Source of the DNA: Escherichia phage ph0021 | Sequence record: OP557970.1 | DNA: 64,000 nucleotides | Strand: one strand, 5' to 3' | Shown here: positions 44,375-49,906 of the stretch, one piece after another | Layout of the letters: each line of letters starts with the position of its first letter | Numbering within the stretch: the first letter of the stretch is position 1 | Translations under genes and position numbers: made by a program | The notes under the pieces: generated by a model | The model's input: the letters and a program-made list of their open reading frames with translations, nothing else | Told to the model about the DNA's origin: nothing | Database searches by the model: none

Positions 44375-45010
44375 TCACAGTTCAGATGCTACGGTGATTA
44401 CCGCTTCAATGTTTTCTGCCGAGCGTTTAATGTCAAGATACACATTACCGTTTTTAGCGATTTTACATGACATTCCGATATCAATAAATTTCTGAATATG
44501 ATGTTCCATCATTTTGTATCCAAAAATTCGCATATTTCCATTATTGTTAATTTCAAAATTACGAATTCCGTGAGTGCGTTTTTCTAAAATAGCGAGATAG
44601 TTACTACGATAAGTTTCAACCTTTTTAAGAACAAATCCATTTTCATCTAAAAGTTTTAGCATAAGGTCTTTATCTTCTTCCATATCGGAAGTAATCTCAC
44701 GAGCTTTACGAGTTGCTCGTTTTTTCAGTAGTTCAGGAGCATTTTCCTGTGCATATAAAGTTGCTGCATTTGAAATAATATCCTGAGCTTCTCCTGTAAT
44801 GATTAATCCATCACCAGATTTCTCTACCAGACCTTTTTTAATCAATACCCCAATATTACTATTAACTACTGCATTACCTAAATCTGGATGCACCTCACGA
44901 ACTTCTGCGGCTGTAATGAAATCTTTCTTAGCAATGGTAATTAAAATCGCAGCAGTTTTTTCATTCAGAACATCGTTAGAAGCTTTGATGATGTAAGTTA
45001 CTTTAGACAT
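44375..45010 (-). CDS. motA: MotA middle-transcription activator
   Basis: 211 aa starting MSKVTYIIKASNDVLNEKTAAILITIAKKDFITAAEV. Confidence 0.9.
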   Translation of the reverse strand: MSKVTYIIKASNDVLNEKTAAILITIAKKDFITAAEVREVHPDLGNAVVNSNIGVLIKKGLVEKSGDGLIITGEAQDIISNAATLYAQENAPELLKKRATRKAREITSDMEEDKDLMLKLLDENGFVLKKVETYRSNYLAILEKRTHGIRNFEINNNGNMRIFGYKMMEHHIQKFIDIGMSCKIAKNGNVYLDIKRSAENIEAVITVASEL

Positions 45011-45045
45011 TTTAATCTCCGTTTCAGTTCATTTATTTGATAGGT

Positions 45046-45076
45046 CTATAGTATCATGTTTAAAGCAGAAGTAAAC
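45046..45076 (-). promoter_or_regulatory. T4-type early promoter for motA
   Basis: GTTTAC (45071..45076) and GATACTATAG -10 region on minus strand. Confidence 0.55.
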
Positions 45077-45115
45077 ACTTTTTTGCACTCTTTTTCAAGA
45101 GCTCTAATAAAGTAC

Positions 45116-45343
45116 TTACTTAATGTTCAGATTACGAACTTCGATTTCGTCTTCATGGGCAAAATCAAACTGTTTGAATTCTGTGTCACCTTTAAATTTA
45201 AAAATCATTGTGAAGAAAGTCAGAACACCAGGTTTTTCTTCACGAACTCCACAGATATCATATTCAATACCATCTACAACCAGTTTGTTAGCAGTCAGAG
45301 CATTTTTAGCTTTAACGATTTCGTTTTCGATTTTAAATTTCAT
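45116..45343 (-). CDS. hypothetical protein
   Basis: 75 aa ORF with its own early promoter. Confidence 0.4.
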   Translation of the reverse strand: MKFKIENEIVKAKNALTANKLVVDGIEYDICGVREEKPGVLTFFTMIFKFKGDTEFKQFDFAHEDEIEVRNLNIK

Positions 45344-45389
45344 TTTTTGTATCTCCGGGTTGTTTGTTTCAGTTCATTTATTTGATAGT

Positions 45390-45422
45390 TGTATAGTACC
45401 ACAGTATGCTTTGGTTGTAAAC
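45390..45422 (-). promoter_or_regulatory. T4-type early promoter with UP element
   Basis: GTTTACA (45417..45422), TATACA-like -10, upstream ttttgtgaaaaaatttttgaaataaaaaa. Confidence 0.55.
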
Positions 45423-45439
45423 CGTTTTGTGAAAAAATT

Positions 45440-45472
45440 TTTGAAATAAAAAAGGGAGAGCCTCGGCTCTCC
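45440..45472 (-). terminator. rho-independent terminator
   Basis: Hairpin gggagagcctcggctctccc followed by U-run on the minus transcript. Confidence 0.6.
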
Positions 45473-45477
45473 CTAAA

Positions 45478-45627
45478 ATTACTGCATGACTGTGATAACT
45501 GTCATGATAACACGTTGAATTCCGAACGCAAGAAGACCTCCTGCTACGGCAGGAACAACACCTAAACCCGCCAGTAAAATGCCACCAGATACTAATGCAG
45601 CGCTTGTAATACCTATGAATGGACTCA
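45478..45627 (-). CDS. small hydrophobic membrane peptide (~49 aa), translationally coupled to gene 52
   Basis: MSPFIGITSAALVSGGILLAGLGVVPAVAGGLLAFGIQRVIMTVITVMQ; ATG overlaps the gene 52 stop (ATGA); below the ORF-track size cut-off. Confidence 0.45.
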
Positions 45628-46953
45628 TTTGATTTCCTCTAAATCTTTGGTGTATTCTGTAACTACATCAGTAGTTTTCCAATATTCGTTTTCTTCTTTT
45701 TTAGCTTTAGCTTCTTCAGCAAGTTTCTTTGCTTCGTCGGAAGTCATATGAAAAATATTCATTCCGACTAGTTTATCAACATAAGAAGAATACATCTCAA
45801 TTTTAGAAAGTTCTTCAGTCAGTTCTTTGCGAGTTTTACCCTGTACAACGATTTCACCTGAAATTACTTTCTTAATGAAATGTGCCTTGGCAAAAGCTAA
45901 ACGAAAAGCTGACTCAGTTTCTTTAATTTTATTATCAATTCGTTTTTGGACATAAGTTTTACGAACTTCAACGAAGTCTTTGATTAAATCAACTACGTTA
46001 TCGTAAACTTGTAGTTTTCCTTTCTCATTAATAACCGTAATATTCTGAGAACGACGCTCAATCAACCCGAAGTCTTTCATAATTTTTGCATGGCGTTCTT
46101 CTTCATTATCGCTCAAAGAGTATTCTTTTCGGAATTTAACTTTGAATCCAAAACCATGCTCACCACAAGCATCATCCCATGTAATGAAGCCTTTATCTTC
46201 AAGTGGGTCTAAGATTTTACTCACATAAATTTCACGATCATACTTATACGGAATCTCAGTGATATGCATTTGAGTTCGTGAAGTAAACTTATATGTTCCA
46301 CGAATTTCATATTGCCCATCAATTTCAACGACTTCACCACGAAATTCTGGGAATTCTACCTTCGGTTTAGTTACTTTCTTTCCTTGAAGAGCTTGTAATA
46401 CAGCTTTCTTGACAGAAGAAACACTATGAGGAAGAATGTAAGTTGCATAACCAGTTGCAATACCGGAAACGCCATTAAGAAGAACAGTAGGAATAATAGG
46501 CAAATAGAAAGCAGGCGGAATGTGTTCTTTATCTTGATGTACCGGAGCATATTCAGTATCTTTATATACGTTATAGAAATTTTTACTTACACGAGCAAAA
46601 ATATAACGACTTGCTGCTGCCTTTTGGACAGTACGAGAACCAAAGTTTCCTTGACCGTCTAACAGAGGAAAGTTATTATTCCAAGTGTTAGCCATCAAAG
46701 CACCTGCGTCTTGCGCAGAGTTTTCACCATGATGATATCCAAGGTCCGCTACACCGCCTGCGATAGAAGCGAGTTTGTGAAACTTATCTTTATTTCCTCG
46801 TGCCAAATCAAGAGCTCGAGCAATAACAAATCGTTGAACTGGCTTAAATCCGTCAATCATATTTGGAATGGCACGATTTTCAACCGTGTACATAGCATAA
46901 GCCAATGCTTCATTATCAATGATACTTTTTAAATCGCGATTATTCAGTTGCAT
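45625..46953 (-). CDS. 52: topoisomerase II medium subunit gp52
   Basis: 442 aa; GyrA/ParC-like N-terminus MQLNNRDLKSIIDNEALAYAMYTVENRAIP. Confidence 0.95.
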   Translation of the reverse strand: MQLNNRDLKSIIDNEALAYAMYTVENRAIPNMIDGFKPVQRFVIARALDLARGNKDKFHKLASIAGGVADLGYHHGENSAQDAGALMANTWNNNFPLLDGQGNFGSRTVQKAAASRYIFARVSKNFYNVYKDTEYAPVHQDKEHIPPAFYLPIIPTVLLNGVSGIATGYATYILPHSVSSVKKAVLQALQGKKVTKPKVEFPEFRGEVVEIDGQYEIRGTYKFTSRTQMHITEIPYKYDREIYVSKILDPLEDKGFITWDDACGEHGFGFKVKFRKEYSLSDNEEERHAKIMKDFGLIERRSQNITVINEKGKLQVYDNVVDLIKDFVEVRKTYVQKRIDNKIKETESAFRLAFAKAHFIKKVISGEIVVQGKTRKELTEELSKIEMYSSYVDKLVGMNIFHMTSDEAKKLAEEAKAKKEENEYWKTTDVVTEYTKDLEEIK

Positions 46954-46957
46954 AAAT

Positions 46958-47098
46958 TTACCATACTAGTGAATGTAGTGCCATAATAACATCAGAAATG
47001 AAAAGCACGACTTGAATTAATCCGAACATTACTCCATAATATAGTGCTACCAATAAAGTAGCAAGGGCTAATGAATAGCCCAAGATTTTCTTAATCAT
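46958..47098 (-). CDS. small hydrophobic peptide (~46 aa)
   Basis: MIKKILGYSLALATLLVALYYGVMFGLIQVVLFISDVIMALHSLVW; hand-translated. Confidence 0.35.
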   Translation of the reverse strand: MIKKILGYSLALATLLVALYYGVMFGLIQVVLFISDVIMALHSLVW

Positions 47099-47249
47099 TA
47101 GTAGATAACAACACAAATGTTAAATATGCACACATACCCTGGGCTAAAGCTTGTGAAAACACACTGCTAGCATCGATACAGATAGTTAAAACACATGCTA
47201 CTATCCAACAAATAAATGAAATAACTCCTAATAATTTTGCGATATTCAT
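47091..47249 (-). CDS. small membrane protein (~52 aa), Ac-like by size and position
   Basis: MNIAKLLGVISFICWIVACVLTICIDASSVFSQALAQGMCAYLTFVLLSTND; preceded by UUCG hairpin and RBS. Confidence 0.35.
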   Translation of the reverse strand: MNIAKLLGVISFICWIVACVLTICIDASSVFSQALAQGMCAYLTFVLLSTND

Positions 47250-47336
47250 ATTTTCCTCACTGGCGTCCGAAGACGCCTTTAGTTTTAAGATTATTACGAT
47301 AGAACTGCATCACATGTTCGTTATGGAAATTACTCA

Positions 47337-47795
47337 TTAATATGCCTGCAAAACGAATTTAAAATTATCAGCCAACATACGGTTCATTTCTTCAAGTGTT
47401 TGATACTCAGAATGATGATTACGAGTAAACGCTAAAGCTAACTGTCCTTTTCCAAATCCCGTCGTCAGAGGTTTCATCTTAGAAGCAGGCAGATAAAATA
47501 CTGCGTATGGAACATTGTTATTTGCAATAGTACGTGCAAGCTGAGACCGACGTTGACGAATATGACTTAGAACTGCACTGAATCCTTGCTTAGAACGCTG
47601 ATTACCTACATAAAATCGTGCAGACACGCATGGATTACTAAATGGACGACCATCTAATTTACTCACTAAAAAGTAAAATCCAGGTTTAGATAAAAAGTCT
47701 TTATGCGGAGTTCCCAAAAACCATTCACCGTTCTTGATTGTACCAATAACGGTAGCGCCAGCATTATTCAGATCAGTAGCAGTCATATATTTCAT
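47337..47795 (-). CDS. ndd: Ndd nucleoid disruption protein
   Basis: From internal Met [29 protein letters not shown]4 Ndd-like, ~152 aa. Confidence 0.85.
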
Positions 47796-47855
47796 ATTAA
47801 TTTCCTCTAAATTATTTTCTACTCCAAGGCCGCATGAATACACGCGGCCATTAAA

Positions 47856-48071
47856 TTAATCGTCGCAGTCGACGCTCAATTCCCAAAACTCTTCTACGGT
47901 ATAAGTTTCAGTATCATTTTCAATACAGAAACGTTCATTACTATTATTTGCTAAAGTAGCGTTAACTGTCATTTTCTCGCTGGTGCTCTTAAGAGGTGAA
48001 ATACGAATTAACTGATCACCACTATCCAAGCAAAAAATTTCACCAACTTTTACATCTTTAAAGATTTTCAT
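47856..48071 (-). CDS. hypothetical protein (ndd.x)
   Basis: 71 aa ORF. Confidence 0.35.
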   Translation of the reverse strand: MKIFKDVKVGEIFCLDSGDQLIRISPLKSTSEKMTVNATLANNSNERFCIENDTETYTVEEFWELSVDCDD

Positions 48072-48186
48072 AATTCACCTCAAGGAGTATAAAATCCAAA
48101 TGCAGTTGTTGACCATCCCATCCAATATGGAAAATTTGCGCCAATGTAAAACATAAGAATATAAAACCAACCACTCAGCAAATTCA

Positions 48187-48384
48187 TCATTTTACACCAT
48201 TCCAAATTGTTTCAACCACGGATTTTAAACCATTTTGATGAATATCCATTCCGACTACCGTCATCAAATAAATTCCAACTACAACTGAACCTAAGGCAAA
48301 AATCAGCATGAAAATGAATAAAGCCGGAAAAATATTATCGAAAAACCATTCAATAAATGTAAAAGCACTGCGTTTACGCTTCAT
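48187..48384 (-). CDS. small membrane protein (ndd.x)
   Basis: Hydrophobic core FPALFIFMLIFALGSVVVGIYLMTVV; likely start MKRKRS after a GAGGA RBS. Confidence 0.4.
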   Translation of the reverse strand: MKRKRSAFTFIEWFFDNIFPALFIFMLIFALGSVVVGIYLMTVVGMDIHQNGLKSVVETIWNGVK

Positions 48385-48391
48385 ATTTTCC

Positions 48392-48505
48392 TCACATAAA
48401 TCCAAAGTAAACGTTTAATACATCAATCATTAAAACGATTGGGAATATACTCAAAACTATTAGTATTATAACTACATTCCATATAGCTTTAACAATCTTT
48501 TTCAT
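48392..48505 (-). CDS. small membrane peptide (~37 aa)
   Basis: MKKIVKAIWNVVIILIVLSIFPIVLMIDVLNVYFGFM directly downstream of a promoter and GGAGG RBS. Confidence 0.4.
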   Translation of the reverse strand: MKKIVKAIWNVVIILIVLSIFPIVLMIDVLNVYFGFM

Positions 48506-48530
48506 TTTCTGTTCCTCCGTAGTTGATAGG

Positions 48531-48564
48531 GTAATAGTACCACGGAAGAACAGTCTTGTAAACA
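48531..48564 (-). promoter_or_regulatory. T4-type early promoter
   Basis: GTTTAC (48559..48564) and TACTAT -10 on minus strand. Confidence 0.55.
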
Positions 48565-48748
48565 ACTTTTTTAAAAATATTCGTAATAAATGTGAATACC
48601 AATCACTACTGCCGAAACTTGTGCAACCCACCATGCACACGCAATAAGTACAGAATTCAAAATTTTCATAATAACCTCATCACAAAAGTAAATGTTAAAC
48701 AAATTACTGGAATACTAATTAACCAAACAAAACACCAACATAATGAAC

Positions 48749-49012
48749 TCATAGTTCAATCTCAACGATTTCCAAGTGTTTTTGTTTTATTGCCTTTTTA
48801 ACACAATCATGGACTAAATATGACCATGAATCATTATATTCTCCATTAACTAATCGTTGGAGATCTTCACGTGATGATAAGTAAGGTTGATCTGATTCCC
48901 ATTTTGATAAAAATACTGCAGTAAAAATATCTCCTTCATCTGTAGTTGAAGTCGTAAATGCAATAAATTCACCGGTAATTTTATGTTTAGCGTAATAAAA
49001 TTTAAATTTCAT
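48749..49012 (-). CDS. hypothetical protein (~87 aa from MKFKFYYAK)
   Basis: Promoter and GGAGG RBS lie inside the longer ORF-track reading, so the internal start is preferred. Confidence 0.4.
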   Translation of the reverse strand: MKFKFYYAKHKITGEFIAFTTSTTDEGDIFTAVFLSKWESDQPYLSSREDLQRLVNGEYNDSWSYLVHDCVKKAIKQKHLEIVEIEL

Positions 49013-49038
49013 TTTTACTCCTCCGTAGCTGATAGTTG

Positions 49039-49069
49039 TATAGTACCACGGTCCTTGTGGTATGTAAAC
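49039..49069 (-). promoter_or_regulatory. T4-type early promoter
   Basis: GTTTACA (49064..49069) and TACTATACA -10 region on minus strand. Confidence 0.55.
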
Positions 49070-49086
49070 TGTTTTGTGAAAATTTT

Positions 49087-49644
49087 TTAAATGGAAAGAT
49101 ACCATCCATTGTAGTTGCTTTTTCTTACAACCTTACGAAGGTCTTCTCTGTCACCGATGAACTTCGGAGTGTACTGGATGACACCTGGATGAATTTCTTT
49201 AGTGTTGAATATAATTATACAGTCAGCGACTTGATGATTTAGAATGGGCCCTAGATTTATTCCAGAACCGTATGGATACTCTCCGCTGCATCCTGTTGTT
49301 ACAGAAATCCAACGTGAGCCAGTTTGATGTGTCTTAACTTCTACACGAAGCCCACAGTATTTTGGATGTGCTAAAACATCCCACGCGTATGTATATGGAT
49401 CATCGACATCTTCTTGACCTTTATTAACATACCCGCTTAGCCAATCTGCTACAAAAAACTCTGCGTATACAGCAATACGACATCTTTCAATAACTTCTGC
49501 TTTATCCTGGTTCGGGTTTTGTTTTAAAGAGTATCTTGCAGTATCAGCAATTTTGACCTTCATTTCACTAGTCAAGTCACTGTTCGATAGGGTAAATGTC
49601 GGAATCTGAAATAGTCTCTGTAAACCCGGATTCGTTTTCTGCAT
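49087..49644 (-). CDS. denB: DenB-like endonuclease IV
   Basis: 185 aa (T4 DenB size) located between ndd and rIIB. Confidence 0.55.
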   Translation of the reverse strand: MQKTNPGLQRLFQIPTFTLSNSDLTSEMKVKIADTARYSLKQNPNQDKAEVIERCRIAVYAEFFVADWLSGYVNKGQEDVDDPYTYAWDVLAHPKYCGLRVEVKTHQTGSRWISVTTGCSGEYPYGSGINLGPILNHQVADCIIIFNTKEIHPGVIQYTPKFIGDREDLRKVVRKSNYNGWYLSI

Positions 49645-49906
49645 TTAGACTTTCCTTTTTACCACTGAGATAAGCGTTATATACTTTAAGAGTGCCGTAA
49701 TAAATTCGGTCATTTTCATCTAAAGACTCGCGGTCAAGTTCATCAAGCTCCTTTTTATCCATGACTATAACATCATTACAGTAAAGAAACCCAAGTTTTT
49801 CGTGACCAAACTCAAATTTATTACAGTACACAATATTAGCGTGATGATTTCCGTGCAGTTTAATCTCTTTTATGTCGGAATCACCGATATTCATACAATA
49901 AATCAT
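49577..49906 (-). CDS. hypothetical protein
   Basis: 109 aa ORF, partly overlapping denB in another frame. Confidence 0.3.
   Translation of the reverse strand: MIYCMNIGDSDIKEIKLHGNHHANIVYCNKFEFGHEKLGFLYCNDVIVMDKKELDELDRESLDENDRIYYGTLKVYNAYLSGKKESLNAENESGFTETISDSDIYPIEQ

Follow-up and report, generated by a model that had tools for sequence, protein, structure and literature searches.

AcrZ, which binds AcrB, and MgtS, MgrB, SgrT, and KdpF are small inner-membrane regulatory proteins of bacteria, and bacteriophage T4 makes early small membrane proteins of its own that alter the envelope of the infected cell, among them Imm and Sp (superinfection exclusion) and rI/T (lysis inhibition). Here we analyze eight small hydrophobic open reading frames (ORFs) of 28 to 65 aa clustered around gene 52 and ndd in Escherichia phage ph0021 (sequence record OP557970.1; the whole stretch analyzed, 64,000 nucleotides, is referred to as the window, and all positions are those of the window). 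Seven of them lie within positions 45478 to 48700, and the eighth, an ndd.6-like ORF, straddles the upper edge of that range. The products resemble AcrZ-type proteins in size (~30 to 65 aa), in having a single hydrophobic helix, and in lacking an enzymatic domain, and the mode of action proposed for them, binding of a larger membrane protein, is the same, one of them (Ac) having been proposed to act against AcrZ's own pump. Unlike the AcrZ-type proteins, however, they are phage encoded, their proposed effect is inhibitory, and their partners are putative, and AcrZ itself has no sequence similarity to Ac. Imm, Sp, and rI/T, on the other hand, are larger proteins (83 to 218 aa) with defined phenotypes and with genes at other places in the genome; a scan of the cluster against PHROG returned no match annotated as Imm, Sp, rI, or holin.

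The closest described counterpart of the locus as a whole is the T4 D region (NC_000866, T4p263 to T4p275, rIIB to gene 52), which has the same gene order, strand, and overlaps, 96 to 98% amino acid identity, and the promoters Pndd.3 and P52 at the same positions as here. Kutter et al. (2018, PMC6071114) described a viable deletion, sa-delta-9 (52.1 through denB), that removes exactly these genes, gives a burst size of 50%, and abolishes T4-induced phospholipid/phosphatidylglycerol synthesis, and they noted that several D-region products are thought to be located in the membrane. Gene-by-gene comparison of our locus with the T4 reference annotation (NC_000866) and with GenBank OR584013 established the gene identities (Table 1): the window is a T4-like (Tequatrovirus) genome, the region is the classical nonessential D region between denB and motA, and the eight small hydrophobic genes are the already-catalogued T4 genes motA.1, 52.1, ac, ndd.2, ndd.2a/ndd.3, ndd.4, ndd.5, and ndd.6. 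The range 45478 to 48700 is ~98% identical to hundreds of T4-like phages of Escherichia coli, Shigella, and Yersinia. An earlier note on this DNA had drawn attention to hydrophobic small ORFs around gene 52 and ndd, and rightly so: the four peptides that it quoted are motA.1, ac, ndd.4, and ndd.5, on the minus strand like all genes from denB to motA, and 52.1, ndd.2, ndd.2a/ndd.3, and the ndd.6-like ORF are further members. The novelty that it implied does not hold, since every one of them is a named T4 gene belonging to a PHROG or Pfam family, and the cluster has been discussed in PMC6071114, in PMC4122927, and in a 2025 preprint on Ac. These genes have been in the T4 annotation for decades, and spotting them adds no new element; what the cluster represents is a compact, well-conserved piece of phage "dark matter," eight small membrane proteins that are under purifying selection and yet dispensable in the laboratory and for which a tentative mechanism exists only in the case of Ac.

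Intergenic gaps in the region range from -8 to +8 nt, except for 65 nt before ndd.4, where an early promoter lies, and 60 nt before ndd, where there is a hairpin. The layout is that of a tightly packed, partly overlapping early/middle polycistron and not of a string of self-contained mini-genes. Two other small genes belong to the same stretch but not to the hydrophobic set: ndd.1, which is in the same operon, and stp, whose hydrophilic product matched PF08133 (75.3 bits versus a cutoff of 25), is 100% identical to T4 Stp, and is, by its family match, the activator of the host PrrC anticodon nuclease. Differences from T4 are few. The T4 reference has ndd.3 and ndd.2a where the window has one intact gene, Ac has one extra Thr here, and T4 lacks both an 87/118-aa ORF between denB and ndd.6 and a 75-aa ORF between motA.1 and motA that are present here.

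Table 1. Genes, promoters, and RNA elements of the denB-motA region, with the ratio of nonsynonymous to synonymous polymorphism (pN/pS) among 12 Tequatrovirus copies (MFE, minimum free energy; GRAVY, grand average of hydropathy; TM, transmembrane)
Feature	Coordinates	Strand	pN/pS	Remarks
denB	49087-49644	minus		
ORF absent from T4	48749-49105	minus		between denB and ndd.6
ndd.6-like	48666-48752	minus	0.19	28 aa; single hydrophobic helix
ndd.5	48571-48669	minus	0.09	32 aa; 10 of 12 variable sites at codon position 3
ndd.4	48392-48505	minus	0.55	37 aa
Fused ndd.2a/ndd.3	48187-48384	minus	0.08	65 aa
ndd.2	48080-48190	minus	0.13	36 aa; 14 of 22 variable sites at codon position 3
ndd.1	47856-48071	minus	0.08 (control)	71 aa; soluble, acidic; GRAVY -0.38; phrog_2183
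ndd, nucleoid disruption protein	47337-47795	minus	0.11 (control)	152 aa
stp	47257-47337	minus		26 aa; hydrophilic; start overlaps ndd stop (TAATG)
ac, acridine-sensitivity determinant	47091-47249	minus	0.02	52 aa
52.1	46958-47098	minus	0.38	46 aa
Gene 52, topoisomerase II medium subunit	45625-46953	minus	0.01 (control, gp52)	442 aa
motA.1	45479-45628	minus	0.14	49 aa
Early promoter, T4 type	48534-48563	minus		GTTTAC, 17 nt, TG-extended TACTAT; sole one inside 45478-48700
Early promoters outside the range	49040-49069, 45393-45422, 45048-45076			neighbors, from T4-pattern search
Middle promoter Pndd.3	48458-48470	minus		inside ndd.4 coding sequence; -10 TATAAT at 48465-48470
Middle promoter P52	46976-47007	minus		52.1 codons 31-38; MotA box TGCTTTT at 47001-47007; -10 TATTAT at 46983-46988
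Perfect 15-bp hairpin	48509-48553	minus		MFE -22.7 kcal/mol, z -4.4
GC-rich hairpin	47828-47849	minus		between ndd.1 and ndd; GGCCGCGUG-UAUU-CAUGCGGCC; no U-tract; MFE -22.4 kcal/mol, z -3.8
UUCG-tetraloop hairpin	47262-47277	minus		GGCGUC-UUCG-GACGCC; within the final stp codons, immediately 5' to the ac Shine-Dalgarno sequence
Intrinsic terminator	45453-45474	minus		after motA.1; 9-bp GC-rich stem and U-run; MFE -20.1 kcal/mol, z -4.3
TM ORFs at the gene 52 stop in related loci	L004 5311-5415, L005 5329-5427, L006 5320-5391, L007 4927-5067			coordinates of each locus

All eight peptides matched PHROG families with E values of ~1e-17 to 1e-31: phrog_8851 for ndd.6 (E=7e-17), phrog_5011 for ndd.5 (E=4e-26), phrog_3098 for ndd.4 (E=3e-21), phrog_4135 for ndd.2 (E=2e-24), phrog_3487 for motA.1 (E=7e-31), and phrog_2501 for Ac (E=3.7e-25 over residues 1 to 51). 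In Pfam, 52.1 matched DUF7396 over its full length, residues 1 to 46 (PF24129; 81.9 bits versus a gathering cutoff of 27), and ndd.2a/3 matched DUF7248 (PF23906; 71 bits versus a cutoff of 27), and there was no Pfam match at E <= 0.1 for ndd.6, ndd.5, ndd.4, ndd.2, ac, or motA.1. To measure selection we counted substitutions per reading frame in 12 Tequatrovirus copies of the locus (the window, T4, T2, RB32, Ac3, SYGD1, N2, and five IMG/VR contigs). The frames were intact in nearly all 12 genomes, and in most genes variation was concentrated at codon position 3. The earlier note had named conservation across T4-like genomes as a check, and it bears the cluster out, several of the frames being found in other genera as well. 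We concluded from the purifying selection and the cross-genus conservation that the eight ORFs are, on sequence grounds, genuine small membrane-type protein genes. T2 (PV648363) carries nonsense codons in ac (S11*) and ndd.2a/3 (G45*) and an altered stp C terminus, lesions that would fit laboratory decay of dispensable genes, and this T2 stock should be acridine resistant.

The hydrophobic character of the cluster is not a by-product of AT-rich DNA. On the plus strand, ORFs of 25 to 70 aa with a hydropathy of at least 2.0 occur at 0.19 per kb, so that ~0.6 would be expected in 3.4 kb, and because seven are observed here (six of them real and one lying out of frame inside gene 52, at 46371 to 46550), the clustering exceeds chance; the remainder of the 64-kb window showed no comparable concentration of hydrophobic ATG-initiated ORFs. 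The best 19-residue Kyte-Doolittle hydropathy is 2.2 to 3.1 in seven of the eight small ORFs and 1.2 in ndd.2, a peptide rich in aromatics and Gly that has no charged residue. In ndd.5, an N-terminal Lys precedes one TM helix and an aromatic/acidic C terminus; ndd.4 has KK..K before its one helix; and ndd.2a/3 begins with MKRKR ahead of a long one. These basic N termini (MKK.., MKRKR, and MIKK in ndd.4, ndd.5, ndd.2a/3, and 52.1) suggest, by the positive-inside rule, an N-in, C-out orientation. The single-helix claim is uncertain for ac, 52.1, and motA.1, which have 41 to 45 hydrophobic residues each and could form helical hairpins; motA.1 is Gly rich and contains GxxxG-type repeats. AlphaFold2 predicts one helix for 52.1 (residues 2 to 45; predicted local distance difference test [pLDDT] score, 94) and, for a DUF7248 protein (ndd.2a/3), a long helix (residues 3 to 51) followed by a short C-terminal one (residues 53 to 64; pLDDT, 80), models that fit TM peptides and are uninformative on function. 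Shigella phage Sf25 gp120 is a natural in-frame fusion of the ndd.4 N terminus to the ndd.2a/3 C terminus, consistent with a shared membrane topology of these two products. We also came across a second natural in-frame fusion, of the Ndd N terminus to the 52.1 C terminus; it is equivalent to losing the bulk of ndd, stp, ac, and the first part of 52.1 while the P52 promoter block is kept. No cleavable signal peptide, lipobox, or beta-barrel was found in ndd.2, ndd.5, ndd.6, motA.1, or ndd.2a. The legacy T4 labels "outer membrane" and "periplasmic" protein are implausible for nearly all-helix products of 28 to 49 residues with no room for a mature domain, and they look like the output of old localization programs.

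A search for related loci based on Ndd gave only five loci, and GenBank phage records supplied further diversity. The most widely conserved member of the set is 52.1, with 72 to 93% identity in Mosigvirus, Dhakavirus, and Gaprivervirus and 50 to 54% in Jiaodavirus and Karamvirus; its cross-genus identity is above the 57 to 63% of Ndd. The family is nevertheless small, an exhaustive HMMER scan of 1.8 billion proteins having found only eight clusters at 50% identity. The ndd.4 product is 61% identical in Dhakavirus and Gaprivervirus and ~30% identical in Karamvirus, Jiaodavirus, and Winklervirus; ndd.2a/3 is ~40% identical in three other genera, with a C-terminal (N/D)GLKSVVExIWNG motif that is invariant in the alignment; and ndd.6 is 96% identical to T4 Ndd.6 and ~50% identical in Mosigvirus, Dhakavirus, and Gaprivervirus. 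By sequence, ndd.5, ndd.2, and motA.1 are confined to Tequatrovirus, the 16 homologues of motA.1 in a 5.8-billion-protein index all being at least 82% identical. An apparent homology among 52.1, ndd.4, and ndd.2a/3, which were merged by an all-against-all BLAST without composition correction, was rejected as an artifact of hydrophobic composition.

A short TM ORF of 23 to 46 aa overlapping the gene 52 stop codon recurs in JS10, SP18, KP182, and Gravdalen (Dhakavirus, Gaprivervirus, Jiaodavirus, and Winklervirus), at a motA.1-like position and unrelated to motA.1 in sequence; it is unannotated in JS10, SP18, and KP182. The slot between ndd and gene 52 is occupied in other genera by other families of small TM proteins, one of 52 aa ("...VWVPS...") and one of 57 aa, and an Acinetobacter locus has only one short TM ORF there; the Aeromonas and Krischvirus loci have none.

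The 52.1 gene also contains P52, and a single stretch of DNA, 46976 to 47010, is thus both coding sequence and promoter. Within codons 31 to 38 (VLFISDVI), the GTG, CTT, ATT, and GAT codons are nucleotide invariant in six genera, third positions included, whereas the adjoining codons vary synonymously. The rest of 52.1, with its YYG and SL(I/V)W motifs, behaves as coding sequence, as judged from the retention of these motifs through synonymous change.

Promoter-early stem-loop (PeSL) cassettes and the ORFans of T4-type hyperplastic regions (Arbiol 2010, PMC2839356; Comeau 2014, PMC4122927) offer a second described system, and ndd.4/ndd.5 has been listed as a PeSL-exchanged cassette (Comeau 2014, PMC4122927). 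We searched for early promoters with a GTTTAC..TAnnnT pattern and a generic sigma-70 scan. The latter returned 23 sites versus 18.2 +/- 4.8 in shuffled sequences, i.e., no enrichment, and only three TG-extended early-promoter sites are credible. The early promoters at 48534 to 48563, 45393 to 45422, and 49040 to 49069 match the PeSL consensus TTTACW-N17-TAYWAT (PMC4122927), and the terminator after motA.1 forms, with the promoter at 45393 to 45422, a typical PeSL terminator/promoter cassette. That pair is the only place where we found a stem-loop directly upstream of a promoter, as PeSL cassettes have at each small gene, and there is none at the promoter at 48534 to 48563. Unlike PeSL genes, most of the small genes here lack flanking cassettes of their own and follow one another closely, head to tail, after one promoter.

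The earlier note had credited most of the peptides with their own early promoter, ribosome-binding site (RBS), and UUCG hairpin. This description did not hold. Within the range there is a single early promoter, and six of the eight small genes lack one of their own; a search of both strands of the whole window for UUCG-loop hairpins with stems of at least 4 bp found only one hairpin of this kind within the range. The GC-rich hairpin between ndd.1 and ndd is not of the UUCG type and is probably an RNA stability or processing element. Shine-Dalgarno sequences (GAGG or GGAGG, 5 to 8 nt before the ATG) precede five of the eight ORFs, ndd.5 among them with GAGG. No such sequence precedes ndd.6, ndd.2, or 52.1, each of which overlaps the preceding stop codon: ndd.6 begins at the stop codon of the ORF before it (ATGA) and ends over the ndd.5 start, ndd.2 starts at the ndd.2a/3 stop (ATGA), and 52.1 overlaps the end of ac by 8 nt. 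The motA.1 start combines both signals, an ATGA overlap with the gene 52 stop and a GAGG Shine-Dalgarno sequence, in agreement with the coupling to gene 52 that had been claimed for one peptide. An Rfam search of 45000 to 49700 at E <= 1 gave one candidate, a CrcZ match on the terminator (21.6 versus 95 bits), which is below threshold and which we regard as noise.

Two middle promoters are embedded in coding sequence. The published start sites (Hinton 2010, Table 1, PMC2988021), converted with an offset of 118244 from T4 to window coordinates, place Pndd.3 (T4 166702) at 48458 and P52 (printed as 65227 and taken as T4 165227) at 46976, and the P52 site was found independently by pattern search. 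The perfect hairpin upstream of ndd.4 has its 5' arm in the early-promoter spacer and its 3' arm over the ndd.4 GGAGG, and RNA that starts after the -10 element of this promoter is unstructured. Transcripts from the promoter at 48534 to 48563 lack the 5' arm, and the hairpin should form, and the ndd.4 RBS be masked, solely on RNA reading through from upstream promoters. We infer that translation of ndd.4 would, as a consequence, depend on the origin of the transcript. Sequestration of a Shine-Dalgarno sequence is not a general trait of the early promoters; a weak 7-bp version occurs at 49040 to 49069, and there is none at 45393 to 45422 or 45048 to 45076.

The earlier note regarded such peptides as candidates for membrane-directed host takeover or anti-defense functions, and for Ac there is experimental support for a membrane-directed effect, namely an efflux block. 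Ac, acting on a resistance-nodulation-division (RND) efflux pump, is the only member of the cluster with experimental backing. The gene lies between stp and 52.1, upstream of gene 52, as in T4. The product is 96% identical to T4 Ac; like that of phage PP01, it has the additional Thr, encoded three codons from the stop, and it retains D26 and A27, at the interhelix junction, and G38. A preprint (bioRxiv 10.1101/2025.06.30.662393) reported that Ac expression sensitizes E. coli to acriflavine and to ampicillin, that T4 lacking ac is resistant, and that Ac G38R leads to resistance, and it proposed that Ac blocks AcrAB-TolC efflux, a view adopted in a 2026 PNAS paper. All ten small genes of the region are early transcripts (PMC9697503, supplement).

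Taken together, these results make it probable that the locus is a D-region accessory operon of genuine translated small proteins, most likely inner-membrane accessory factors that act on host envelope components. A polycistron of ~3.1 kb would run from the early promoter at 48534 to 48563 to the terminator at 45453 to 45474 and carry ndd.4, ndd.2a/3, ndd.2, ndd.1, ndd, stp, ac, 52.1, gene 52, and motA.1, with ndd.6 and ndd.5 just upstream of it. Read-through from the promoter at 49040 to 49069 and the two internal MotA-dependent middle promoters would add transcription, and expression would proceed through ordinary Shine-Dalgarno sites or through stop/start overlap with the preceding gene. 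The eight products would insert into the host inner membrane within the first minutes of infection, where each, as a dispensable accessory factor, would bind or perturb one host envelope component. Ac would impair AcrAB-TolC-type efflux and so cause acridine sensitivity, and one or more of the others, or of the denB-proximal genes, may underlie the phosphatidylglycerol stimulation that is lost in sa-delta-9. Defining the host targets might lead to new small-protein inhibitors of efflux pumps and other bacterial envelope machines, and it could also explain the old observation of phosphatidylglycerol stimulation by T4.

Several observations count against this interpretation. Time-resolved proteomics scores all ten small products as "none" (PMC9697503), and the same study gives Ndd.4 (P39249) as an instance of a protein missed because it is small; no relevant T4 ribosome-profiling data set was found in the literature. 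CRISPRi-ART scores all of the small genes as "Not Fit," and transposon sequencing, in which all or almost all of their TA sites were hit, places each of them in the "Non-essential" class. The link between Ac and AcrAB-TolC is a preprint proposal from phenotypes and structure prediction and not a shown interaction, and BLASTP of Ac against AcrZ gave no alignment at E <= 100 (with an approximate AcrZ query sequence). Hydropathy and the positive-inside rule, and no dedicated predictor, underlie our TM and topology assignments. For 52.1, some of the conservation is at the DNA level and is promoter conservation, because the invariant block is the MotA box plus -10 region of P52, and the pN/pS of ndd.4 comes from only five variable sites.

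A bolder form of the accessory-factor interpretation, which we put forward tentatively and think rather doubtful, is that the cluster is a toolkit of inhibitory small proteins, each adapted to a different inner-membrane machine of the host, with the ndd-to-52 and post-52 slots serving as landing pads. The targets could be, for example, an RND efflux pump (Ac), phospholipid-synthesis enzymes (a gene within sa-delta-9), and transporters or proteases. If so, the Tevenvirinae would swap inhibitors according to host at slots that are maintained in evolution.

Among the alternatives, the one that survives best, unlikely as we consider it, is that the peptides are counter-defense factors directed at membrane-acting abortive-infection or exclusion systems, as the neighboring rIIA/rIIB counter RexAB. 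The genes do sit in a hyperplastic accessory region beside rIIB, denB, and stp, the last of which interacts with the EcoprrI/PrrC restriction system, but the cluster products showed no match to known anti-defense families, and the characterized member, Ac, affects drug efflux and not a known defense system. Dispensability on laboratory strains combined with purifying selection in nature would suit such a role, as would the exchangeable ndd.4/ndd.5 cassette and the genus-by-genus variation in ndd-to-52 gene content, which is what would be expected of arms-race genes. Yet a T4 transposon library challenged with RexAB, RnlAB, CBASS, DarTG1, DarTG2, and minimal medium had no reported hit in the cluster, the screen against the five defense systems yielding only the expected hits plus tk.4, and in the one conditional transposon comparison covered here the cluster genes stood at q = 1, with no effect.

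Less probable still is a role as membrane-damaging host-shutoff toxins of the type I toxin or holin-like kind that would depolarize or permeabilize the inner membrane early. Short single-helix hydrophobic peptides expressed immediately after infection invite this idea, as do the glycine-zipper-like repeats of motA.1, which are typical of pore-forming peptides, but eight individually conserved peptides exceed the need of generic depolarization, T4 development needs an energized membrane, and the absence of Pfam matches at E <= 0.1 beyond the two DUF families leaves no link to a named toxin or holin family. Classical work described ac as raising acridine permeability; Ac induction, on the other hand, results in drug sensitization and not in intrinsic killing (bioRxiv 10.1101/2025.06.30.662393). 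Finally, that the ORFs act mainly in cis, being translated merely to carry ribosomes along the mRNA for coupling or protection from Rho or RNases, with peptide sequences that would not matter, or in the extreme are chance ORFs in AT-rich DNA, is scarcely credible. In its favor, stop/start overlaps and 4- to 8-nt gaps are common, three ORFs lack a Shine-Dalgarno sequence, AT-rich DNA does yield chance hydrophobic ORFs such as the one inside gene 52, ndd.4, 52.1, and stp have promoters or hairpins within them, and no peptide has been detected by mass spectrometry. It is contradicted by clear amino-acid-level selection (pN/pS of 0.02 to 0.19 in six of the eight, the YYG, SL(I/V)W, and GLKSVVExIWNG motifs of 52.1 and ndd.2a/3 kept across genera despite many synonymous changes, and positional analogues that stay hydrophobic while their sequences diverge) and by ac point mutants, G38R among them, which have a phenotype.

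The comparison also exposed inconsistent annotation, and the earlier note was correct that such genes are easily missed. Among seven annotated Tequatrovirus records, ndd.6 is annotated in one, stp in two, 52.1 in about five, and ndd.5 in five; 52.1 is unannotated in JS09 and SP18, and ndd.6 is unannotated in OR584013. The T4 reference itself splits one gene in two by a single missing base. In NC_000866.4, one G is missing directly behind the start codon (ATGAA-CGT versus ATGAAGCGT), and the 65-aa DUF7248 gene is therefore divided into "ndd.3," a PHROG singleton, and "ndd.2a." No such frameshift is present in the newer T4 assembly (OZ035787) or in the other Tequatrovirus genomes checked, and "ndd.3" is very likely an annotation artifact or a strain-specific lesion.

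The range 45478 to 48700 is 100% identical to OR584013 ("Pseudomonas phage PsgM02F"), the sole such match, which was deposited as a phage of Pseudomonas coronafaciens from coffee leaves. Its sequence is nevertheless ~98% identical to coliphages and typical of an E. coli-type Tequatrovirus, and the host given for this record may deserve checking. The 118-aa ORF annotated in OR584013 at 48749 to 49105 overlaps denB, and its first 30 codons contain the early promoter at 49040 to 49069; its homologues in JS09 and SP18 are 87 aa long, and the real start is probably an internal ATG at ~49012 (MKFKFYYAK...). RB32 and Ac3 carry a divergent ac allele that is missed by nucleotide BLAST with the ac gene of the window, with flanking stp and 52.1 genes that are 94 to 96% identical, which points to allele replacement by recombination (the RB32 annotation calls ac "more similar to RB69"). 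Lastly, 71 nt of stp (47267 to 47337) have a counterpart with 88.7% identity in NC_073322 (Escherichia phage vB_EcoS-Ro145c2YLVW), at a place where that record has no annotation; the record, of 42 kb, is a siphovirus by name and is unrelated to T4, and the similarity suggests that the stp peptide gene has spread horizontally.

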